The notes beneath the pieces are model-generated. The model was not told where the DNA came from. It did no database searches and saw nothing but the letters and a program-made list of their open reading frames with translations. A program made the translations under genes and the position numbers. A stretch of 64,000 nucleotides of DNA from Verrucomicrobiia bacterium (GTDB lineage: Bacteria > Verrucomicrobiota > Verrucomicrobiia > Limisphaerales > JADLHS01), in the NCBI GenBank assembly GCA_023953615.1, contig JAMLJH010000002.1, positions 1,040,492-1,104,491 on the forward strand, given 5' to 3'. Below are positions 3,097 to 19,894 of this stretch, piece after piece (position 1 is the first letter of the stretch; each line of letters starts with the position of its first letter).

Positions 3097-3171
3097 GGCG
3101 GGGTAGCCAAGTGGTAAGGCAGGGCTCTGCAAAAGCCTCATTCGTCGGTTCGATTCCGACCTCCGCCTCCA
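3097..3171 (+). tRNA. tRNA-Cys (anticodon GCA), CCA encoded
   Basis: Acceptor GGCGGGG/CTCCGCC (one G-T pair), anticodon loop CTGCAAA, T-arm GTCGG-TTCGATT-CCGAC, then TCCA. Confidence 0.9.
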
Positions 3172-3172
3172 A
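3148..3172 (+). repeat. attL: 25-bp core (gttcgattccgacctccgcctccaa) formed by the 3' end of tRNA-Cys
   Basis: Identical 25-mer recurs at 16667-16691. Confidence 0.8.
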
Positions 3173-3218
3173 CTTCAAGTTGCACTTTTGCAACGAGTTG
3201 CAGAATCCAGAGGGGGCA

Positions 3219-3242
3219 AGTGCCAGTGAAAGTGCCAGTGAA
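3219..3242 (+). promoter_or_regulatory. Tandem 12-mer doublet AGTGCCAGTGAA x2, candidate arm-type integrase binding sites (int-proximal arm)
   Basis: Perfect tandem copies 47 bp after the att core. The same doublet is at 16464-16487, and a variant doublet sits at the same 47-bp offset in element 2. Confidence 0.5.
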
Positions 3243-3385
3243 ATCAATACCGGGATACGACTCATCATCTACTCCGGCATTACTCGGCAATCACTCGCGA
3301 TGACGGGATTCGCAGCCCGTTTGGTGTAGCTGATACACCCAAAGCCACGTTCAGTTTCATAGCTTCGGACAGAAAGTCTGAACTT

Positions 3386-4462
3386 ATGAAACGTCGTTTC
3401 ATCCTCTACCGTCGCAAGCTCGGGGGCACATTCTACGTCGAGGACACCCAAACCCGAAAGCAGGAAAGTCTCGGCACGAAGGATCGCGCCGAGGCCACGT
3501 CCCTGCTCAACGCTCGTAACGAGTCTGTTCGCCAACCGCAACTGAATCTTCAAATCGCCAAGGCATACTTGGCTGGAACGGATTCAGGCGTCTCGACCCG
3601 GACGTGGCAACAAGCACTCGATGCCATTGTCGAAACCAAGAGCGGTTCAACCCAGGATCGCTGGAAACGTGCGGCGAAAGAAACCGCGTTGGACCATATC
3701 CGCCATCGAGTGATTCTGGAAACGCAAGCCGATCATCTGCTCGCCTGCCTCAAGGCGGGCACGGTCAGCACGAATGTTCATCTGAGGAAGTTGCACAACT
3801 TCTGCCTTTCGATGAACTGGCTGCCGTGGCCGCTCATTCCCAAGCGCCTCTGGCCGGAAGTGCGTTTCAAGGAAAGACGCGCCATCACCAGTGAAGAACA
3901 TCAGCGCATCATTGAGCGGGAAAAGAACCCGGAGCGGCGAAGCTTCTACGAACTCTGCTGGCATCTCGGCGGTTCTCAAACCGACATCGCCAATCTCAAG
4001 GCGGAGGACATTGACTGGCCCAACCAGACCATTGCTTATGCCCGGCAAAAGACCGGCAGCCTCGCAATGATTCACTTCGGGCCGGACATTGAGGCGGTTC
4101 TGCGCCGACTCAACTCAACGGGATATTTGTTCCCATATCTGCAATCCGTTCGCTCTGGCGACCGCGCCACGGAATTCAAGCAACGATGCGAAGGATTGGG
4201 AATCAAAGGCGTGTCGCTGCATTCTTACCGCTACGCTTGGGCGGAGCGGGCGAAAACGTGCGGCTACCCGGAACGATTTGCACAGGAAGCGCTCGGTCAC
4301 AACAGCAAGGCTGTGCATCGCTCCTATTCACGAAAGGCCAAGGTGAGGCTGCCCTCGCTGGAAAGCTACGAGAAGCAAAACGTGGAAGGCCGCATCATTC
4401 CATTGCTTCCGCCCGTGCCGAATCCCGAAAGAAACGGTCACTCGATTTCAGCGGCTGGTTAA
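3386..4462 (+). CDS. Tyrosine recombinase / integrase (intact)
   Basis: 358 aa. The C-terminal catalytic region has HSYRYAW (HxxR), LGHNSKAVHRSY (His and catalytic Tyr) and an upstream Arg region. It lies immediately inside attL. Confidence 0.9.
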   Translation: MKRRFILYRRKLGGTFYVEDTQTRKQESLGTKDRAEATSLLNARNESVRQPQLNLQIAKAYLAGTDSGVSTRTWQQALDAIVETKSGSTQDRWKRAAKETALDHIRHRVILETQADHLLACLKAGTVSTNVHLRKLHNFCLSMNWLPWPLIPKRLWPEVRFKERRAITSEEHQRIIEREKNPERRSFYELCWHLGGSQTDIANLKAEDIDWPNQTIAYARQKTGSLAMIHFGPDIEAVLRRLNSTGYLFPYLQSVRSGDRATEFKQRCEGLGIKGVSLHSYRYAWAERAKTCGYPERFAQEALGHNSKAVHRSYSRKAKVRLPSLESYEKQNVEGRIIPLLPPVPNPERNGHSISAAG

Positions 4463-5305: not shown

Positions 5306-8300
5306 ACGCGGACTGCCGCGCGGCGCTTGGGCCGGGGCGAATGGGCTTGGGTTTGTTTCTCGGAAGTCTTCTGTTCGGTCGCCTCGGGAGCATCCGCATC
5401 AACCTGGCTCGGCGCTTGGTTCTTGGTGAGATCGAGCTTTTCTTCGATCTCACTTTGGCGGCGGGTCAACTCTTGGTAGCGCTCCTCGCGCTCGAAGTGT
5501 GCGCCAACTTTGGTTTCCAGCTCTTTTGCCCGCTTCGTGGCGTCGGCGATGTCGTATTCGAGTTTGGATGCGCGCTCCTCAAAGCCTTGGACGTTTGCTT
5601 CGAGTGAACGAATTGTGCCCTGCGCCGTGTCTGTCACTCGTGCGGCATAACTGTTCTTTCCGCGCACAATCATTTCGACGTTGTTGTTGAAGGTGGGACG
5701 CAGGAACAAATCGAAACCCGCAAAGCGTCCAACCCGCACGTCATCGCCGAATCGGTTTTTGATCTTCTCGGCACGACGAACAATCAATTCTCCGGCAATC
5801 CCCCGGTTGTCGAGAACTTGCCCGTCGAGTTCGATGCTGAACTTGTCGCCCGACGTGTCCTGCCGGAGAGCGATGTCCTGACGCAAGTTGGTGAGCCGTC
5901 CCGCGAACGCCTCGGCGTCCTCGTGCGAGCGACGGAGATTGGAGCGGATGCGGTATTGTTCCTCGGCATGGGCGGAACGCAGCCGCGTGAGACGGATCAA
6001 TTCCGCGTCCACCTGGGCCTTTTCAATCACGAGCGGATTACCGGAAGCAATGGCCTTCACCTCGGCGTAGGTCAGTGCGGCCGAGTCCAAATCTTCAAGG
6101 CGGCGGATCGTCATGTCGCCGCTCATCACCTGCGCGATGAACTTCGCCTTCGTCTCCAGTGTCTGCCACATATAGGCGTCAAAGCTCCCCTCCGTGACGT
6201 AGCGGAAAATCTGGATGACGGAATTCTTGTTTCCCTGCCGTAGAATCCGTCCCTCGCGCTGCTCCACGTCTGCCGGTCGCCACGGCGCATCGAAATGGTG
6301 CAAAGCGATGAGGCGTTCCTGAACATTCGTTCCCGAACCCATTTTCTGTGTGCTGCCGAAAAGGACACGCACCTTGCCCGCCCGAACGTCCCGGAATAGA
6401 GACAACTTCGCAGCATCGGAGTCATAGTCTTGAATAAAGGCGATTTCCGCACTCGGCACGCCAAGCTTCTCCAGCTTGTCCGCCGCGTCACGATAAACCG
6501 AAAAGCCCTTGTCCTTCGGCGTCGAGAGATCGCAAAAGACGAGCTGCGCGGAACGCTCCGGCTTCGACTCCTGCCAGATGAGGAAAATGTTTTCGACCGC
6601 CTGATTGACTTTGCCCTGTGGATCGTCCTTCGCGGCTGGCTTCATCAGCCGCAGATCCAAAGCAGCCTTCCTGCCCTCGGACGTAATCTTCAGCATGTTG
6701 TCCACGCTTGGATCAACACGATTGGCTTTCAGGCGCTCCGCGCGCTTGGCAAGTTCCTGAACAAATGCCTTCAACTCTGGCGTTGCTGGCGCATTTCGGA
6801 TGGTTGGCCTTTCGCCATCAAGCTTTGGCCGGGGCAAATTAAGCATTGCAGCGGTTTGCACGTCGGCGGACTGGCGGAACATCTGCATCAGCTCCGGCAC
6901 ATTGATGAAACGCGCAAAGCGCGTGTTCAGACGGTAGCCCGCGCCGTCCGGCGAAAGCTCCATCGCCGTCACCGGCTCGCCGAAAGTGGCCGCCCACGAA
7001 TCGAAGTGATGCAGATTATGTTTCTTCAGCGCGTCGTGCTGGAGATAACGCTGCATCGTGAACATTTCGGCCATGCTGTTGGCGATGGGCGTCCCGGTGG
7101 CGAACACAACGCCGCCCCCGCCGTTCAACGACTGGACGTGGCGCACCTTCAAATACATATCGAACGCCCGCTCGCTCGCGGTCTGCGGAAGCCCCGCGAT
7201 GCGTGTCATCTTGGAAACGTAGAACAGATTTTTGAAGTAGTGGGCCTCGTCCACGAGCAGCCGGTCCACGCCAAGTTCTTCAAACGTCAGCGTGTTGTCC
7301 TTTTTGTGTTCGGCAGCCAGCGTTTGAAGTTTGGCTTCAAGCCGCTTCTTCGCTTTTTCCAGTTCCTTCACCAACCGGCGATTAGAACTGTCGGCGTGTT
7401 CCCGGCGGATCATTTCCAGTTCGTGAAGCTGCTCCTTAAAAAACCGCTCCTGCGTTTCGCGTGAAAGTGGGATGCGTTCAAAACCGGAGTGCGTGACAAT
7501 GACGGCATCCCAATTGCCAGTCGCGATGCGGCTGAACAGTTTCTTGCGTTTGTGCGACTCGAAATCCTCCTTGCCTGCGGCCAGGATATTCGCGCCCGGA
7601 TACAACGTCAGCAACTCGGTAGAAAACTGCCCGAGCATGTGATTGGGGACGACAAACATTGGCTTGCCAGAAAGACCAAGCCGCCGCGATTCCATCGCAG
7701 CGGCAACCATCGTGTAGGTCTTGCCTGCGCCGACGACGTGGGCGAGCAATGTGTTCGGCGTTTGCAGAATCCGCCAGACACCGGCCTTTTGGTGCGAGTG
7801 AAGTTGAATCGCTCCGCTTGCGCCCGGCAACGTCAGGTGATCGCCGTTGAAGGTGCGAACGCGCGTGTGATTGAACGTGTCGTTGTAGAGGCGGCAAAGC
7901 CGTTCGCGGCGCGAGTCATCCGACCAGACCCATTCCTTGAATTGTTCTTTGATGCGTTCCTGCTTTTCGCGCGCGGCCTCGGTTGACTGCGCGTTCACGA
8001 CAGGCTTTTTATCCACCATGTCATAGACCGTAGGCGTTTTCAGATTGAGCGCGTCTTCAATCAATTCGAGCGCGGTATAACGGTCAGTTCCCCAATCTGT
8101 CGTGTTTGCAGTCGCGCCTTTCGCTTCCCAATTCGCGCTGATATGCCAAGTGCCGAGTGCGTGGATGTGGCCGATTTCCACACCGGACGGAATGTGGAGC
8201 AATCCATTCGTGAAATCCTGCACGTCCCCTGGCGGCAGCCAGGACGCGCCAAGGCGAACATCAATTTCCGTGGCCGCGAGGTCGGCTGAAATGAAGTCCG

Positions 8301-8352
8301 TCACCGCAAGCGAGGCCGTCCAATGGGCGGAGGAGCACTTGTTCGACCGCAA
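5302..8352 (-). CDS. SNF2/DEAD-like helicase, matching the C-terminal part of the large methylase-helicase proteins of conjugative elements; appears 5'-truncated
   Basis: Motifs LLAHVVGAGKTY (Walker A / motif I), LLVDEAHYFKN (motif II) and FGSTQKMGSGTNVQ...DAPWRPADVEQREGRILRQGN (motifs V-VI). The N-terminus begins in the LGASWLPPGDVQDF linker with no methyltransferase domain upstream. Confidence 0.7.
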   Translation of the reverse strand: MRSNKCSSAHWTASLAVTDFISADLAATEIDVRLGASWLPPGDVQDFTNGLLHIPSGVEIGHIHALGTWHISANWEAKGATANTTDWGTDRYTALELIEDALNLKTPTVYDMVDKKPVVNAQSTEAAREKQERIKEQFKEWVWSDDSRRERLCRLYNDTFNHTRVRTFNGDHLTLPGASGAIQLHSHQKAGVWRILQTPNTLLAHVVGAGKTYTMVAAAMESRRLGLSGKPMFVVPNHMLGQFSTELLTLYPGANILAAGKEDFESHKRKKLFSRIATGNWDAVIVTHSGFERIPLSRETQERFFKEQLHELEMIRREHADSSNRRLVKELEKAKKRLEAKLQTLAAEHKKDNTLTFEELGVDRLLVDEAHYFKNLFYVSKMTRIAGLPQTASERAFDMYLKVRHVQSLNGGGGVVFATGTPIANSMAEMFTMQRYLQHDALKKHNLHHFDSWAATFGEPVTAMELSPDGAGYRLNTRFARFINVPELMQMFRQSADVQTAAMLNLPRPKLDGERPTIRNAPATPELKAFVQELAKRAERLKANRVDPSVDNMLKITSEGRKAALDLRLMKPAAKDDPQGKVNQAVENIFLIWQESKPERSAQLVFCDLSTPKDKGFSVYRDAADKLEKLGVPSAEIAFIQDYDSDAAKLSLFRDVRAGKVRVLFGSTQKMGSGTNVQERLIALHHFDAPWRPADVEQREGRILRQGNKNSVIQIFRYVTEGSFDAYMWQTLETKAKFIAQVMSGDMTIRRLEDLDSAALTYAEVKAIASGNPLVIEKAQVDAELIRLTRLRSAHAEEQYRIRSNLRRSHEDAEAFAGRLTNLRQDIALRQDTSGDKFSIELDGQVLDNRGIAGELIVRRAEKIKNRFGDDVRVGRFAGFDLFLRPTFNNNVEMIVRGKNSYAARVTDTAQGTIRSLEANVQGFEERASKLEYDIADATKRAKELETKVGAHFEREERYQELTRRQSEIEEKLDLTKNQAPSQVDADAPEATEQKTSEKQTQAHSPRPKRRAAVRV

Positions 8353-10183
8353 TTCGGTCGTGCTCGAATGTCAGGTGTGGCAGGAAGCGTTGGGGCGGGC
8401 GCGCGGCGAAGGTTTTTCAGTTTCCGAACTCAAAGAGTTCACAGGGAAGCGCGGTTACATACGGGATGAGGAACGTCCCGGCGCGGTCACTTTGCGCGAA
8501 GTTCTGCTCCGCGAATGGGAAATCGTTCAGACCGCGAAAGAAGGCGTGGGTGATGCCTGGCCGCTGGTTGCGAATCCGCGTCCGGCAGATCCCAAACTCG
8601 ACGACGAACAACGAGAGGCACTCGATGCTTTGCTCTCCTCCATTAACACCGTGTCTGTGTTTCGCGGCGGCGCGGGCACGGGCAAAAGTTTTGTCCTGCA
8701 CGAGCTGGTCGAACAACTTCGGGAGTCTGGTCGGCGTGTGGTTGTTCTCGCCCCGCAGCGTCAGCAAGTCGTGGAAATGGAGAAGGCAGGATTTCCGTCA
8801 CCCTCTACGGTCGCGAATTTTATCCTCAAGCGCGAACTGGCTGAACGCGCGGTCGTTGTCGTGGACGAAGCGGGGCAAATCGGCGGGCGGCAAATGCTCG
8901 AATTGATGCGGCTGGTCCGCGAGCGGAATGCCCGGCTGATTCTGTCGGGCGACACGCGGCAGCACGGAGCTGTTGAGGCTTCGGACGCATTGCTGGCAAT
9001 CGAGCGGCACTCCGGCGTCAGGCCAGTCGAGTTGCACAAGATTCGGCGGCAAGACCCGGCGCTTGGCAAAGACGCCGATGAGCGCATACGCATCAAGGAT
9101 TATCGGAACGCAGTCGAATCAGCGGCGGCGGGCAAGTTGAGCGAATCGTTTGAACGCCTCGACAAGATGGGTGCGGTGGTGGCGTGCGGCTTGGGAGATC
9201 AAGCTGACAAGCTGGCGAAAGAATATCTCCGGCTCGCGGAACAAGAGGCTTCGGCGGTGGTCGTCTCGCAAACATGGAGTGAAGTGCATCGCGTCAACAC
9301 GCGCGTCCGCGATGCACTCAAAGACAAAGGATTGCTCGGCGCAAACGACACGATCGTTCAAGTGCTGGACAAGCTCGACTTGACGAACGCGCAGAAACGC
9401 GACGAACGGTTTTACCCGCCTGATGCCGTCGTCGTCTTCAATCAGAAAGTGCGCGAAGCTGAACCGGGTGCGAAAGGAAAGCTGGCGGGCATTTTGAAAT
9501 CGAGCGTGCTCGTCGAAGTTGGCGGAAGATTCATCACCGTTTCAAACAAAGTCCTGGATCACGTTACGGTTTATCTCCCGCGTGAAATCTCGGTTGCACA
9601 AGGCGACCGGCTTCATCTCAAAGCGAATCGCAAGCTGGCTTCAGGTGGTCGCGTCACGAATGGCGAACTTGTCACCGTGAAGTTGGTTCGTCCCGATGGC
9701 GCAGTTGAACTCACCGATGGCCGCGTCCTGGACAAAACTTTCCGCGAGTTTCTGCCGGGCTACGCCGTCACGTCCTACGGCTCGCAAGGCAAGACGGTGG
9801 ATTACGTCCTGTTCTCCGACTCGACCGTCAAGGCCGCGACGAACGCGCAGCAATGGTATGTGACCATTTCGCGCGGGCGGCGTGGCATCCGAATCTTCAC
9901 GCCGGACAAAGAGCAATTGCGCGAGAATGTGACGCGCTCCGGCCACAGGCCGCTGGCGATGGAGTTGGTGGCCGGTCTTGTCCCGCGCCGTGGCGTCCGC
10001 CTTTGGGATCGCTTGCACGTCCATCTCCTCCGATTTGGACGACGCGCCGCCGACACTTTTTGCCGGTTGAAACTGGCGCGTCGTCATCACCATCAACCCA
10101 CGCAAAAGCATGAACACAAAAACACCCGAATGTTGGTCGAGCGACCCGAACGCTCACGGCGTCAAAATCGAACTGTCGGCTGA
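8291..10183 (+). CDS. MOBF (TrwC/TraI-type) relaxase, helicase portion only (RecD-like AAA_30 + UvrD_C); N-terminal relaxase domain missing
   Basis: AVQWAEEHLFDRNSVV (linker typical after the relaxase domain), LDDEQREALDALL, FRGGAGTGKS (Walker A), VVVVDEAGQ and a C-terminal YAVTSYGSQGKTVD. No HUH or catalytic Tyr domain is present; upstream sequence belongs to the opposite-strand helicase. Confidence 0.7.
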   Translation: MKSVTASEAVQWAEEHLFDRNSVVLECQVWQEALGRARGEGFSVSELKEFTGKRGYIRDEERPGAVTLREVLLREWEIVQTAKEGVGDAWPLVANPRPADPKLDDEQREALDALLSSINTVSVFRGGAGTGKSFVLHELVEQLRESGRRVVVLAPQRQQVVEMEKAGFPSPSTVANFILKRELAERAVVVVDEAGQIGGRQMLELMRLVRERNARLILSGDTRQHGAVEASDALLAIERHSGVRPVELHKIRRQDPALGKDADERIRIKDYRNAVESAAAGKLSESFERLDKMGAVVACGLGDQADKLAKEYLRLAEQEASAVVVSQTWSEVHRVNTRVRDALKDKGLLGANDTIVQVLDKLDLTNAQKRDERFYPPDAVVVFNQKVREAEPGAKGKLAGILKSSVLVEVGGRFITVSNKVLDHVTVYLPREISVAQGDRLHLKANRKLASGGRVTNGELVTVKLVRPDGAVELTDGRVLDKTFREFLPGYAVTSYGSQGKTVDYVLFSDSTVKAATNAQQWYVTISRGRRGIRIFTPDKEQLRENVTRSGHRPLAMELVAGLVPRRGVRLWDRLHVHLLRFGRRAADTFCRLKLARRHHHQPTQKHEHKNTRMLVERPERSRRQNRTVG

Positions 10184-15608: not shown

Positions 15609-16154
15609 CTAGGAGAAAAAATAGCCAAGGGAGCGAAGCGATGAGTGGTTGGGATTACCGATGACTATGTGATCGAGGACTTCGATTTTGAGAAGTTGCC
15701 CGGCTCGGATGAGGTCGCGGGTGATTTTGATGTCAGCTTCCGAAGGAGTTGATTCACCGCTCGGATGATTGTGCGCGATGATGATTGCAGCGGCACTCGC
15801 CATGATGGCTAAACGGAACACCTCCCTGGGATGACAGAGAATTGTATCCATCGTTCCAATGGACACCAGATAGTGGCCCTTGATGCGCCGACGTGTGTTG
15901 AGGATGAACACCACCAAACATTCACATTCAGAATTGAAGTAAGGATGTGTCGCGATATGCGTTTTCCAATAGGCGGCTGCCTGATCCGGTGTTTCGCACT
16001 GTTGCATGGTGTCGGGTGTAGGACATTCCCGAAGTGATACGATTTTCCATTCCTGCGGTTGAGACGGGAATTTGATCGGCTTGACGATGGTGTTCGTGGG
16101 TTGCGGAGTGATTGCGGGGCATCCGGTGGAGATGAGGTTTTCCGTTGTGTTCAT
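15609..16154 (-). CDS. RadC-like JAB-domain protein (DUF2466 type found on mobile elements)
   Basis: The HNHPSGESTPSEADIKITRDL signature and C-terminal VLDHIVIG. The ATG at 16154 is preferred; the 272-aa track ORF extension is low-complexity. Confidence 0.75.
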   Translation of the reverse strand: MNTTENLISTGCPAITPQPTNTIVKPIKFPSQPQEWKIVSLRECPTPDTMQQCETPDQAAAYWKTHIATHPYFNSECECLVVFILNTRRRIKGHYLVSIGTMDTILCHPREVFRLAIMASAAAIIIAHNHPSGESTPSEADIKITRDLIRAGQLLKIEVLDHIVIGNPNHSSLRSLGYFFS

Positions 16155-16160
16155 GTTTTG

Positions 16161-16355
16161 CGTTTCGTTCTGAAGGAGCGGGACTGCTCTCTTCACCGCA
16201 CCGGGAGAGCAGCCCCGCTCCTGACGAAACGCACCCGTCTGCGCCCGCGCCGCCGGGCAGCGGAGCATCAGCAACGAAGTGACAGCGGACGAAAGGATGT
16301 TTCGTCCGCTGGCGCGAGGTTGCGCGGAGCAACCAGAGGCGCGGGTGCAGACGGG
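16161..16355 (-). other. Densely nested hairpin region upstream of the radC-like gene (candidate structured RNA or single-strand DNA element)
   Basis: Pairings: 16161-16167/16225-16231, 16175-16191/16205-16221 (17 bp, 1 mismatch), 16234-16251/16338-16355 (18 bp, 1 mismatch) and 16283-16294/16300-16311 (12 bp perfect). Confidence 0.4.
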
Positions 16356-16463
16356 ATGAACACAGCGGATAACCTCATCGGCGGATGCCCGCTGCGTTGG
16401 CAAGCAAACACCGATGGCGAATGCCATTTAGCCCTGATAAACAGGGCATTTTTTACAAAAAGA

Positions 16464-16487
16464 AGTGCCAGTGAAAGTGCCAGTGAA
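16464..16487 (+). promoter_or_regulatory. AGTGCCAGTGAA x2 doublet, candidate arm-type integrase sites (distal arm of element 1)
   Basis: Identical to 3219-3242 and in the same orientation, about 180 bp before the second att core. Confidence 0.45.
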
Positions 16488-16666
16488 CAGGTGATAAATG
16501 AGTAATTGGCGAGTAGTTGATTGGCATCGAGTGCGTGATGCCGAGTGCTTGACAGATGTGCTAAAACGCCTGATTCTATTGGCGTTCGTTAGTTATGAGG
16601 CTGTTCGCCTCTGGTGGTGGGGCGGTAATCGCGGAGTAGTGAGTTTCGGAAAAACTCCCTGCATCT

Positions 16667-16691
16667 GTTCGATTCCGACCTCCGCCTCCAA
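16667..16691 (+). repeat. Second copy of the 25-bp tRNA-Cys 3'-end core (attR of element 1 and left att of element 2)
   Basis: Exact match to 3148-3172. The upstream sequence cannot form a T-arm, so this is not a tRNA gene. Confidence 0.8.
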
Positions 16692-16737
16692 TTCCAAACA
16701 ACTTTTGGACAAGGAGTTACAAATCTCACAGCCCTCA

Positions 16738-16761
16738 AGTGCCAGCAAAAGTGCCAGCAGA
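16738..16761 (+). promoter_or_regulatory. Variant 12-mer doublet AGTGCCAGCAAA / AGTGCCAGCAGA, candidate arm-type sites of element 2
   Basis: Begins 47 bp after the att core, the same offset as 3219 relative to 3172. Confidence 0.45.
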
Positions 16762-16902
16762 TTTGTGACTCGGAATTACTCAACAACAACTCCGCGATCA
16801 CCCCGGCACGACTTGCTGAAACGCAATTGGCCGTGCGTTTGGTGTCATTGAGACACCTGCCCTTCGTCCTCGCTTGGCAGGCTCGAACAAAAAATTCGAG
16901 CC

Positions 16903-17556
16903 ATGAAAAACCGATTTCGCCTCTACCGCCGCAAGAAGGGCGGCATGTTCTACGCCCACGATTCCGAAACTGGCAAACAGGAGAGCCTCGGAACAAAAGA
17001 CCGCGCCGAAGCGACCACTCTGCTCAACGCCCGCAACGAATCGTTTCGCCAGCCTCAACTCAATCTCCACATTGCCAAAGCCTACCTGGCGGGGACGGAT
17101 TCCGGCGTCTCCACGCGGACCTGGCAGGACGCCCTGAACGCGATCATTGAAAACAAGGAGGGTTCGACCAAAGATCGCTGGGTTCGGGCGGCAAAGGAGC
17201 CGGCGCTCGACTTGATTCGCGGGAAGGTCATCCTTGAAACCCAAGCCGAGCAACTGCTCGCCTGCCTCAAGGCTGGCACGGTCAGCACCAACGTCCATTT
17301 GCGCAAGCTCCACAACTTCTGCCTCGCGATGAACTGGCTGCCGTGGCCGATCATTCCGAAGCGACTCTGGCCGGAAGTCCGCTTTCAACCCAAGCGCGCC
17401 ATCACGCTGGAGGAACATCAGCGGATCATTGAGCGAGAGAAGAACCCCGAGCGACAGAGCTTCTACGAACTCTGCTGGCATCTGGGCGGCTCGCAAACGG
17501 ACATCGCCAACCTCAAGGCCGAGGACGTTGACTGGCCCAACCGGACCATTCCATAA
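16903..17556 (+). pseudogene. Tyrosine integrase paralog, truncated after codon ~216 (no catalytic domain)
   Basis: Aligns colinearly with the integrase at 3386-4462, with about 35 differences in 217 residues by manual alignment. Homology stops near 17550. Confidence 0.8.
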
Positions 17557-18624
17557 TCAGTAGTAGTGGCCTTTGGTCTTGGCGATGAGTTCACGAACAG
17601 AGCGGTCGCCAGTGATGTCATCGCCGGGGCGACCGCGAGCGGAGCGAGGGGGAAGGCCAGAACCAGCGATGATGATCGCGCCGGCGCTGCCCTGGCCGGC
17701 GGCAGTCGAGAGCGTGCTCAGGATCGCCGCCATGCCGGTTGCACCCACGGTGGCGAGGGGCAGCCCGGTGGTGGAGGCGACGGCCGCCGCACCCGCCGTG
17801 GTGGCAGCGGTCTGGAGAAAACTGCCGACTGCACCAGAAATGAGCTGGCCGCCTGCGAGCGTGCCGTAGCTGATAACCTTCTGGATGACGACCGGTGCAG
17901 AAATGGTACTGAACACGATCCAAAAGGCCACGACCGCCACTCCAAACGTGGCTTGCAGGGAATAGAGCGTGGCGGTTGGGTCAATGAATTTGAAAGCCGG
18001 GTCGGTCATGAAATCGAGAATGCCCTGGGTGATGAGCGCCGCGACGGCCCAGCCGAGCGGCCAGAGCAGCACGCCAACGATGTGCATCAGGTAGCGGCTG
18101 CCGATCGACCGCAGCGGGCGAATGGCCATAAAGCCAATCATTAGGGGCGAGAGCGCGTAGGCGGTGAACAGGATGAACTTCTGAATGATGTAGGCCCAGA
18201 ACAGCAGCAGCGACGCGAACTGACCAAAGAGCCAGAGAAAGCCAGAGATGAGAAGTTCAACGGTAAAACTGTTGAGGTCGCTCAAAATATCCCACCAAGA
18301 ACGGTCAGTCCCGGTATCACGCTTGATGATGAGCAACTGATTGTATTGGTCTTGAACGTTCGACGGATCAACGCCCAAGCCGTCGAGAATGGAGGTTTGC
18401 AGGAGTTGTTGGGCCTGATTGCCCCATTGCGGCAGCATTACCAGCAGGGCGGTCAACACGAACAAGCGCACGATGTGCAAGATGAGCGTCTTTCCGTTGA
18501 AGCCGTGGACGACCAAAAGGATCGTCCCGACGATGAACAACATGAACGCCACGATGCGCAGCAATTCGTGCAGTTCGACGCACTTTTGCAGGAACGTCGG
18601 GAAGAGTTGTTCAAAGGTTGCCAT
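17557..18624 (-). CDS. trbL: TrbL/VirB6-family type IV secretion inner-membrane protein
   Basis: 355 aa with multiple TM segments and a Gly/Ala-rich tail, located downstream of a TrbJ-like gene as in P-type T4SS operons. Confidence 0.65.
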   Translation of the reverse strand: MATFEQLFPTFLQKCVELHELLRIVAFMLFIVGTILLVVHGFNGKTLILHIVRLFVLTALLVMLPQWGNQAQQLLQTSILDGLGVDPSNVQDQYNQLLIIKRDTGTDRSWWDILSDLNSFTVELLISGFLWLFGQFASLLLFWAYIIQKFILFTAYALSPLMIGFMAIRPLRSIGSRYLMHIVGVLLWPLGWAVAALITQGILDFMTDPAFKFIDPTATLYSLQATFGVAVVAFWIVFSTISAPVVIQKVISYGTLAGGQLISGAVGSFLQTAATTAGAAAVASTTGLPLATVGATGMAAILSTLSTAAGQGSAGAIIIAGSGLPPRSARGRPGDDITGDRSVRELIAKTKGHYY

Positions 18625-18648
18625 AGTCGGGACGATTTGAGGGGGCGG

Positions 18649-19449
18649 TTACTGGGTTGGGAATGCGGTGGGCGCATTCACCAGGCGGAAGGTCTGCCCG
18701 TATTTCTGCACCGCCTCGGTGAACTCGGCGTGCTGTTGCTCTTTCTTCGCCTCGATCTGGCGCTGCGCCTCGTTGCGATTGGCCACGTCCTGAACCAGCG
18801 CCGACGCGGTGGCCTGATTGATTTCGTAGTCCGTGTTGTTGAGCGCTGACGACAGGCCGATGAGAACGCCGGTCAACTTCTGCACCTCCGCGTCGGTGGT
18901 GGCGTTCTTGAGCGCTGTAGTGGTCCGGGCAATTTCCTCCTTCAGCGCAACACGCCTGGCGGTGGCGTCTGTAGTGACAGACAAAAAGTTGTCCGTCGTC
19001 TTCTGCACGGCCGCGACCGGCAGATACGGCGATTCGCGGCGGGTGACGGTTGCTCCGTTCGGAGTGGTAAACGTCGTGCCGATGCTGCTGAACAGGCCGT
19101 TGGCGTCATAGAGCATGGCCTGGCCCGCATCCGCAGCCCCTTCGAGCGCCGTGAGCGTCTGGCCGAGTTCAGTCTTCCGCAAATCGGTGACCAGCGGTTG
19201 AACCGTTGTGAGAAGGACGGCTTTGGGATCGCCGAACAGGCTCTCGTAGTGCTTGAACTCGTTCAGTTGGTCGTTGAGCGTCTGGATCTGCTGGACCTGG
19301 TTTTGAATGACCTTCACGAATTGCGCGATTTCCTGCGCGGTGTTCATGATGGATTGCATCTGCGCGGTGGGGTCAAAGACCACCCATTGCGCGCGGGCCG
19401 ATACCGTGACGCCGAGCGTCACGAGGGTGAGTGCGATGAGTCTCTTCAT
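18649..19449 (-). CDS. trbJ: TrbJ/VirB5-like conjugal transfer protein
   Basis: Signal peptide, then QWVVFDPTAQMQSIMNTAQEIAQ...QIQTLNDQL, as in TrbJ N-termini. Coiled-coil rich. Confidence 0.6.
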   Translation of the reverse strand: MKRLIALTLVTLGVTVSARAQWVVFDPTAQMQSIMNTAQEIAQFVKVIQNQVQQIQTLNDQLNEFKHYESLFGDPKAVLLTTVQPLVTDLRKTELGQTLTALEGAADAGQAMLYDANGLFSSIGTTFTTPNGATVTRRESPYLPVAAVQKTTDNFLSVTTDATARRVALKEEIARTTTALKNATTDAEVQKLTGVLIGLSSALNNTDYEINQATASALVQDVANRNEAQRQIEAKKEQQHAEFTEAVQKYGQTFRLVNAPTAFPTQ

Positions 19450-19894
19450 GGTGTGCCTTTCGTTGTCGTTTGCTGGACGGCGGCGACACGCCGCCAATCA
19501 CGAGAGAGGGTTTACCACGGAGGAAGGAAGGTGCGGTGTATCACCTGCACCACGTGCAGCGAAGTCCGTATGGCGGAAACCGAGACCGACACGAAAAGGT
19601 CCAGCAAGGGCTGCGCATTGGGAAACCGGTAGCCAACAGGTCAACTCAACACACGACTAATAATGCGTGCCTTGCTCGACCTAGTCCCGGTATTGCGCGC
19701 CACGTTGGCCTTTGGGGAATCGGCGGCGTGCGCAGCAGTGTTGTAGGCGATGATGCGGTCCTCCACGTCTCTCTTGTTCGGTAGGCAGTGGTTTTCCCAG
19801 GACGTGAAGTAGCTAAGCATCGCGCAGCCATACCAGCCAAGCATCGCCGCATTTCTTGACCTGGATCAAATCGCACGCGTCCGATCCAGTCCAT

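Follow-up and report, generated by a model that had tools for sequence, protein, structure and literature searches.

A structured element that closes on the start codon of a RadC-like gene in integrative conjugative elements of Verrucomicrobiota

Introduction

In the insertion sequences IS10 and IS50, read-through transcripts are subject to fold-back inhibition, in which a stretch close to the end of the element base-pairs with the start site for translation of the gene that reads inward. The leading regions of F and ColIb-P9 reportedly carry single-stranded-DNA (ssDNA) promoters of the Frpo/ssi type, described by Masai and Arai in 1997. We know of nothing that has been learned about conjugation in the phylum Verrucomicrobiota, and it is from this phylum that we describe here a block of hairpins with partial likeness to both systems. 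The block lies directly upstream of a gene for a RadC-like JAB protein (radC in what follows), at one end of a decayed integrated element, in a stretch of 64,000 nucleotides (nt) from a Verrucomicrobiia bacterium (assembly GCA_023953615.1, contig JAMLJH010000002.1, positions 1,040,492 to 1,104,491). This whole stretch is called the window, and coordinates refer to its first letter as position 1. An earlier reading of the letters and of their open reading frames (ORFs), the sequence-only reading, had drawn attention to the block.

RadC-like genes are common accessory genes of conjugative elements (PMC5512222), and the radC RNA motif, Rfam RF01754, is a candidate cis-acting structure upstream of radC-like genes in Proteobacteria (Weinberg et al. 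2010, PMC2864571). Insulation of an element end from host read-through is provided in Tn916 by the terminator T1 (PMC11658703). In ICEBs1, an integrative conjugative element (ICE), the single-strand origin sso1 is an ssDNA element of three stem-loops, and its authors expect the sso's of other ICEs to be recognisable only by structure (PMC4595007). The block described here is, like RF01754, structured, supported by covariation, located upstream of radC-like genes and of unknown function; unlike RF01754, it gives no covariance-model match, belongs to elements of Verrucomicrobiota rather than Proteobacteria, and forms a three-way junction that closes on the start codon.

Fold of the block and pairing of the start codon

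The hairpin block upstream of the radC-like gene is a real, new and well-supported structured element, larger than first described. The sequence-only reading had listed four stems; all are found, each slightly longer than stated there, and an outermost helix had been overlooked, in which 16131-16154 pairs with 16356-16379 (24 nt, 92%) and which continues as 16117-16125 with 16382-16390 (9/9). In both RNA and DNA folding this helix, P1, encloses hairpin A (16159-16233) together with hairpin B (16234-16355), so that 16117-16390 forms a three-way junction; the downstream arm of P1 contains the radC ATG (16152-16154) and codons 2-12. The parts, all on the − strand, are as follows.

15609-16154, − strand: RadC-like JAB gene, 181 amino acids (aa), PF04002 with an E-value of 3e-36 and an intact HxHPSG...D motif
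16117-16154, − strand: downstream arm of P1, consisting of the radC ATG and codons 2-12, with the least variable synonymous sites of the gene
16159-16168/16224-16233, − strand: basal stem of hairpin A, 10 bp, perfect
16174-16191/16205-16222, − strand: upper stem of hairpin A, 18 bp, one mismatch
Loop of hairpin A, − strand: invariant GGTGAAGAGAGCAG
16234-16355, − strand: hairpin B, with a covarying basal stem at 16234-16256/16333-16355 (23 nt, 87%)
16260-16283, − strand: junction strand of hairpin B, GTCACTTCGTTGCTGATGCTCCGC, unpaired and nearly invariant, with one GCTCCGC repeat
16283-16294/16300-16311, − strand: inner hairpin of hairpin B, of variable length, here 12 bp and perfect
16312-16315/16322-16325, − strand: small helix of hairpin B
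16319-16334, − strand: junction strand of hairpin B, GGTTGCTCCGCGCAAC, unpaired and nearly invariant, with one GCTCCGC repeat
16356-16390, − strand: upstream ('anti-start') arm of P1, non-coding, the partner of the radC start codon and codons 2-12

Folded as RNA, the − strand reaches a minimum free energy of −192.6 kcal/mol (z −12.6), and the + strand folded as DNA reaches −128.6 kcal/mol (z −14.5); in either case none of 100 shuffles folds as well. The stem density had been put far above that of the surroundings, and the block is indeed the strongest folding outlier after GC correction among 456 overlapping 280-nt segments of the whole 64 kb, with a z of −6.4 (runner-up, −2.7). P1 closes on the ATG in the window and across 57 aligned loci, and the spacing between hairpin A and the ATG is 4 nt, in the window (AAAC) as in nearly every aligned locus. 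By computation on the full-length sense RNA, forcing the start region open costs 28 kcal/mol; the computed probability of an unpaired AUG does not exceed 0.18 with the complete leader, but reaches 0.88 or more if the transcript starts after the 5' arm. A tandem 16-nt direct repeat also lies across the start codon at 16137-16170 (in the sense direction, GAACGAAACGCAAAAC-AU-GAACACAACGGAAAAC), and the anti-start arm could adopt a second pairing register, 18 nt upstream, with 12/16 positions matched, a possible alternative conformation.

Conservation and exclusive link to one radC subfamily

A genome scan with the 181-aa RadC-like protein as query returned 80 loci (numbered with the prefix L), almost all of them in metagenome-assembled genomes (MAGs) of Verrucomicrobiota/Limisphaerales. 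The block is present in about 60 of these 80 loci and in about 85 metagenome contigs, in constant orientation. Of the 120 matches from the metagenome scan, for which an 18-nt core word was used, about 85 represent complete copies, each followed by hairpin A and the radC start, and the remainder are decayed copies with deletions at many positions, plus six chance unrelated matches. The same word had no matches in IMG/VR. DNA similarity between loci starts at 16389/16390, which is the base of the outer helix, and the sequence upstream of this point belongs to at least five unrelated flank families. With a profile hidden Markov model run on the window and on all loci, one copy was found per radC and none elsewhere; and neither inverted copies nor copies before another gene occur among the 57 aligned loci and the approximately 85 complete metagenome copies. 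We thus describe a new structured nucleic-acid family of more than 140 copies, about 275 nt long, with a three-way junction and invariant junction strands, which no Rfam model describes and which is tied to the RadC-like JAB genes of ICEs.

The junction is kept in L086 (78% protein identity), in L058 (68%), where the small helix has changed from GCGC/GCGC to GCAG/CUGC, and in L063 (63%), where ATGAGCACC pairs with GGTGCTCAT and both GCTCCGC repeats of hairpin B have become GCTTCGC. A 29-nt insertion lies in the variable inner hairpin of L024, the surrounding junction being conserved. The block is absent from radC relatives with a different N-terminus (L056, L065-68, L075-79). Within radC, third-position entropy is lowest in codons 1-12 (0.36, versus 0.42-1.20 in the other 12-codon bins). 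The leader accompanies radC and not the integration module, because in different loci it adjoins integrase/att modules of the F4 type, of the F5 type, or cargo; in L086 it lies upstream of a type IV secretion operon, with no att site nearby.

The 272-aa extended ORF (15609-16427), whose translation and conservation as a protein had been the sequence-only reading's own objection to a structured element, was rejected as a protein, since it is not conserved. An in-frame stop lies within 39 codons upstream of the ATG in 31 of the 57 loci, and indels that are not a multiple of three separate most loci from the window. Column variability by codon position shows no third-position excess in the block (0.41/0.34/0.38), as against 0.38/0.33/0.53 in the coding part. 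The lengths assigned by gene callers vary from 181 to 284 aa because the sequence is open and GC-rich, not because it is protein. A 49-aa ORF on the + strand (16356-16505) was likewise set aside, as a mirror of the radC start made by the inverted repeat and continued into non-conserved flank.

These results bear on the proposal that the block is a DNA-level repeat without folding function, or coding sequence, be it an invertible promoter, a MITE-like insertion (miniature inverted-repeat transposable element), the Rfam radC motif or an N-terminal extension of RadC. Inverted repeats of 24-33 bp do flank 201 bp beside tyrosine-recombinase genes, and extended proteins of 195-284 aa are often predicted by gene callers. 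However, the opposite orientation is never seen in the aligned loci or the metagenome copies, there are no dispersed copies, and incomplete ones arose by deletions whose breakpoints differ; covariation of the internal hairpins is explained by neither inversion nor transposition; there is no Rfam match, and the extension ORF is broken in most loci. We consider the proposal extremely improbable. With one copy per radC, none inverted and none before another gene, copy number, constant orientation and radC-only context exclude an inverton, a dispersed MITE-like repeat and a general-purpose module of which Frpo-like copies would stand before several genes.

Some of the MAGs that carry radC and its leader are labelled Bifidobacterium/Bifidobacteriaceae, Formivibrio, Hyphomicrobiales or Acidiferrales, with 82-94% identity to the Verrucomicrobiota copies (L007, L008, L009, L010, L011, L018, L021, L035, L052). 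These MAGs look mislabelled, and the odd labels are probably binning errors; they may also reflect transfer between taxa. Other radC subfamilies (L066-L068, L077-L079) have unrelated hairpins of their own that lie near the start codon or overlap it (in L077-79, for example, GCTCTGG...CCAGAGCGAAGAC). None of these start-codon hairpins matches RF01754, and structured starts may be a general habit of radC-like genes. In E. coli, yeeS overlaps yeeR and is hence without an upstream leader.

Covariation of the helices

Covariation was counted on the 57-sequence alignment for a structure of 101 pairs, with 500 column shuffles and partners slid by 1-3 columns as controls. RNAalifold recovers the hairpins from this alignment, and 90.9% of the alignment cells are paired. 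Both sides have changed in 32 of the 101 pairs, compared with 17.7±2.2 in the shuffles, none of the 500 reaching the observed count, and with 12-19 in the slid controls; counted by cell, there are 185 both-side changes versus 69 in the shuffles. Conservation and covariation among homologous loci, on which the sequence-only reading had made its case depend, are therefore found, the former in about 60 loci and the latter in the 57 aligned ones. The both-side changes extend to all parts of the fold: 8 of 30 pairs in P1 (helices 1-2), 17 pairs in hairpin B (helices 3-6) and 7 pairs in hairpin A (helices 7-8). Examples are the column pairs 117-172 (AU 28, GC 27), 125-164 (CG 23, AU 18), 78-218 (UA 22, CG 19) and 235-305 (CG 39, UA 17). 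The covariation includes the coding side of P1, in that radC codons 4-5 vary (ACGGAA, AATGAA, ACAGAA) and these variants are matched by changes in the non-coding arm.

Position at the end of an integrated element

In the window, a decayed element of about 13.5 kb is integrated in tRNA-Cys, its boundaries lying within 3097-4462 and 16463-16691. Its att core is a 25-nt direct repeat, GTTCGATTCCGACCTCCGCCTCCAA, found at 3148-3172, the 3' end of tRNA-Cys, and at 16667-16691, the 3' end of an element-borne pseudo-tRNA. The interior between the repeats holds an SNF2 helicase gene, a relaxase helicase fragment (8102-10183, + strand), 5 kb of cargo and radC (− strand). There is no type IV secretion system in the ~13.5-kb element, and the relaxase is reduced to the helicase fragment. 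The features that define the termini are the following.

3386-4462: integrase gene
16463-16486, unstranded: two arm-type integrase repeats AAGTGCCAGTGA (P arm), between the leader and the att core, identical at 3218-3241 beside the integrase
16612-16691, + strand: element-borne pseudo-tRNA ending in the att core, the right terminus of the element

In at least 10 loci, homology with the window stops at 16690-16692, and in L087 host DNA abuts the same core. From these two observations it follows that radC is the terminal, inward-reading gene; it lies about 540 nt inside attR, and its leader starts about 300 nt inside the att core. In the window, as in at least 21 loci, radC faces a convergent operon for a TrwC-type relaxase. 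No oriT or nic site was found, and a candidate based on the loose resemblance of GGTGCGT... to MOBF nic regions was dropped, the stretch being paired and covarying. If oriT is located upstream of the convergent operon, as in model systems, the transferred strand would be radC-sense and radC would enter late. The sequence-only reading had placed the block next to the distal arm sites, in a position compatible with the leading end of a transferred element: the first part holds, as the gene is terminal, inward-reading and adjacent to arm sites and att core, but on the layout just described radC would belong to the last-transferred part and not to the leading end.

A possible translational gate

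The structure reaches into the ORF and pairs with the start codon, and this changes the likely mechanism from those that the sequence-only reading had considered. Our tentative reading, to which we give a probability of about 45%, is that the block is a new RNA leader that blocks translation of transcripts carrying its upstream arm. A transcript entering from upstream, either through attR from host DNA or from a neighbouring element, would carry the anti-start arm (16356-16390); hairpins B and A would fold, and the anti-start arm would then pair with the AUG and the first 12 codons, closing the three-way junction. With its start occluded the message would not be translated, and the terminal inward-reading gene would be insulated from outside transcription. 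Relief could come from a transcript without the 5' arm or from a factor that opens P1; for the latter, the nearly invariant junction strands of hairpin B, whose two GCTCCGC repeats underwent a joint change in one lineage, and the hairpin A loop may, speculatively, be binding sites. The grounds for this reading are that by computation the AUG is paired in the full-length RNA and free without the 5' arm, and that Shine-Dalgarno-like motifs are rare, being found upstream of 2/32 long ORFs, so that accessibility of the start site should dominate initiation. It is supported as well by the closure of P1 on the ATG across the aligned loci with changes that match those of the codons, by the low third-position entropy of codons 1-12, by the restriction of the block to this radC subfamily in one orientation and its absence from relatives with another N-terminus, by the covariation, by majority wobble pairs that are G·U on the sense strand, by the RNA-like architecture of a variable hairpin in a conserved junction, by the promoter-like boxes aimed at the leader in three flank families, and by the established need of ICEs to keep their genes insulated from host read-through, as in Tn916 with its terminator T1 (PMC11658703).

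In fold-back insulation, sequence upstream is complementary to the translation start of an inward-reading terminal gene, and such complementarity is what we find here. As with IS10/IS50 and with T1 of Tn916, a terminal inward-reading gene is here proposed to be shielded from flanking transcription. The arrangement differs from those systems in being far larger, with an outer helix of 33 bp, in having two additional conserved and covarying hairpins, in that no internal promoter was identified, and in that the protected gene codes for a RadC-like JAB protein and not for a transposase or replication protein. Moreover, and unlike T1, the leader would act on translation and not on termination, as it has no U-tract. 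Should the translational gate prove true, ICEs would insulate a terminal gene at the level of translation, complementing the insulation by terminator and antiterminator of Tn916, and radC would be marked as a gene whose untimely expression is costly.

Several observations weigh against a translational gate. Within the block, a sigma-70-like scan of the sense strand from 16155 to 16355 gave no promoter from which an 'ON' transcript could be made, and nothing is conserved upstream of the helix base, so that there is no conserved promoter for the full-length leader either. The helices are very long, GC-rich and near-perfect (33, 23, 12 and 28 bp), as is typical of signals in ssDNA and unusual among the cis-regulatory RNAs of bacteria. 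Finally, G·U on the sense strand (235 cells, 41 positions) is no commoner than A·C (189 cells, 45 positions; G·T if read on the other strand), which counts against pure RNA-level selection, by which G·U would be strongly favoured. The positions at which a wobble pair is in the majority are all G·U on the radC-sense strand (54/57, 40/57, 32/57 and 25/57 sequences); taken as a test of strand, wobble usage is symmetric, cannot assign the folding strand and is not decisive. In sum, some features look like those of DNA (helices that are long, GC-rich and almost perfect, and a sharp boundary as of a cassette), and others like those of RNA (P1 centred on the start codon, the fixed 4-nt distance between hairpin A and the ATG, the variable hairpin within a conserved junction and the exclusive link to a single N-terminus).

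The same observations lend weight to a serious rival, the main one to an RNA leader, namely that the block acts as ssDNA in the transferred strand, being a single-strand origin or a priming site of the sso/ssi type. Folding while the element is single-stranded, either following transfer or in rolling-circle replication, it would start synthesis of the complementary strand, and its overlap with the radC start would be incidental. Such a site would account for the strong DNA fold (z of −14.5), for long GC-rich stems with about as many mismatches of the G·T type as of the A·C type, the expected outcome where RNA wobble rules do not apply, and for cassette-like conservation whose limit coincides with the base of P1, without a conserved promoter. 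Moreover, the presumed transferred strand is the radC-sense strand, the same that bears the majority wobble pairs, and sso1 of ICEBs1 is a precedent with three stem-loops (PMC4595007). Like the sso's of rolling-circle plasmids and of ICEBs1, the block has multiple stem-loops within 150-300 nt, would by design be orientation-specific, and is conserved as a cassette in elements that pass through an ssDNA stage. Unlike them, it has no RNA-polymerase boxes, although the sso types that depend on RNA polymerase use them, and it is embedded in a gene start and co-evolves with its codons; sequence similarity would not be expected. An sso leaves unexplained the precise closure of P1 on the ATG in nearly every lineage, the way in which P1 follows codon changes, and the fact that the block is never found apart from this radC N-terminus. 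We therefore regard it as unlikely.

A variant of this idea, which we hold to be decidedly unlikely, is a box-less ssDNA initiation signal of ICEs from the Planctomycetes-Verrucomicrobia-Chlamydiae (PVC) group, acting instead of an RNA or besides it. On the strand just transferred, or on that of rolling-circle replication, it would serve to prime the second strand, to tie radC expression to the single-stranded state, or both, and would be the first such signal outside Proteobacteria and Firmicutes, working without sigma-70 hexamers. An ssDNA signal of any kind, if true, would raise the question by what means DNA is primed or expressed after its transfer in this phylum.

Known families and promoter searches

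The sequence-only reading had offered two parallels, the radC RNA motif and the ssDNA promoters and initiation signals of the Frpo/ssi type, and the searches did not uphold either. With cmscan at E<=10, neither 5 kb nor 391 nt of sequence matched RF01754, and only generic miRNA-hairpin noise was returned; in 18 related loci no RF01754 reached the gathering score, only tRNAs being found. The location of the block, directly upstream of a PF04002 RadC-like JAB gene, is thus a positional resemblance only.

The second parallel implies that the + strand folds on entering a recipient and is transcribed for radC by host RNA polymerase before the second strand is made. The block shares with the Frpo/ssi elements of the F and ColIb-P9 leading regions a length of a few hundred nt, long imperfect hairpins, a location just before an accessory gene in a conjugative element and a stable ssDNA fold (Samuel et al. 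2024, PMC11541004). At about 275 nt it is a good + strand DNA fold in which many mismatches of the outer helix and of the lower stem of hairpin B are G·T, and RadC-like genes are common among conjugative accessory genes (PMC5512222). However, no −35/−10 pair was found on either strand between 15500 and 17000 (0 promoter-like sites), which includes both strands of the block, even though host promoters have sigma-70-type boxes, as in TTGAGA-17-TAGGAT upstream of tRNA-Cys. Nor was a sigma-70-like promoter found on the radC-sense strand within the leader in about 60 loci, the only matches there being occasional ones on the antisense strand somewhere in the scanned upstream stretches. By these features the block stands apart from Frpo/ssi, having no −35, −10 or UP element, being a branched three-way junction and not a single promoter-mimicking hairpin, and occurring once per element. 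Moreover, the ATG is inside the outer helix, so that a start site at the helix base would miss it, and under the usual oriT layout its position would probably be trailing and the transferred strand probably not the template of radC. A promoter of this type is quite improbable here.

In three flank families, promoter-like boxes aimed at the leader lie 65-270 nt upstream. TA dinucleotides are, by eye, almost absent from the consensus.

A pair of sense and antisense RNAs in the manner of traJ/FinP, with both strands transcribed and folded and the antisense RNA controlling the radC leader, is improbable. It would fit the symmetric use of wobble and A·C on the two strands, and a terminator-like hairpin, GCCCTGATAAACAGGGC followed by ATTTTTT, is present on the + strand at 16431-16456, just outside the leader. 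This hairpin is confined to the flank family of the window and L012 and missing from the other families, and the scan of the window gave no antisense promoter.

Neighbouring elements and cargo

The pseudo-tRNA at 16612-16691 is not called by ARAGORN, and in L003 a complete tRNA-Phe occupies this position, so that a tRNA-like sequence of almost full length is carried by the attP of this element family. A TTGACA box (16546-16551, + strand) lies upstream of the pseudo-tRNA.

A second, truncated element follows in tandem at 16692-19497, with its own pair of arm repeats AAGTGCCAGCA (16737-16759). Its integrase remnant int' (16903-17556) runs directly up to the stop codon of a trbL-like gene on the − strand (17557-18624), beyond which lies a trbJ-like gene (18649-19497); by a deletion, the integrase has been joined to the interior of a Trb operon.

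In L055, L057, L062, L064 and L070, radC is cut at one and the same codon, about number 129, by three adjacent tyrosine-recombinase genes, which suggests an element with a recombinase trio that targets a specific site inside the radC family. A site-specific breakpoint after GGTTGCTCCGCACAAC, taken from L055, was considered and rejected, the breakpoints of other decayed copies being scattered over many positions.

The interval between radC and a convergent small gene with the TrwC relaxase is a hot spot for cargo (L011, L013, L025, L028, L038, L059, L082, L087), which includes AbiEii/AbiEi pairs, a Bub/Bil-like ubiquitin-like set (BubE, ThiF+JAB, E2) as well as further inserts. Elsewhere, radC is followed by PPK2 and a P-type ATPase, or by resistance-nodulation-division (RND) pumps.

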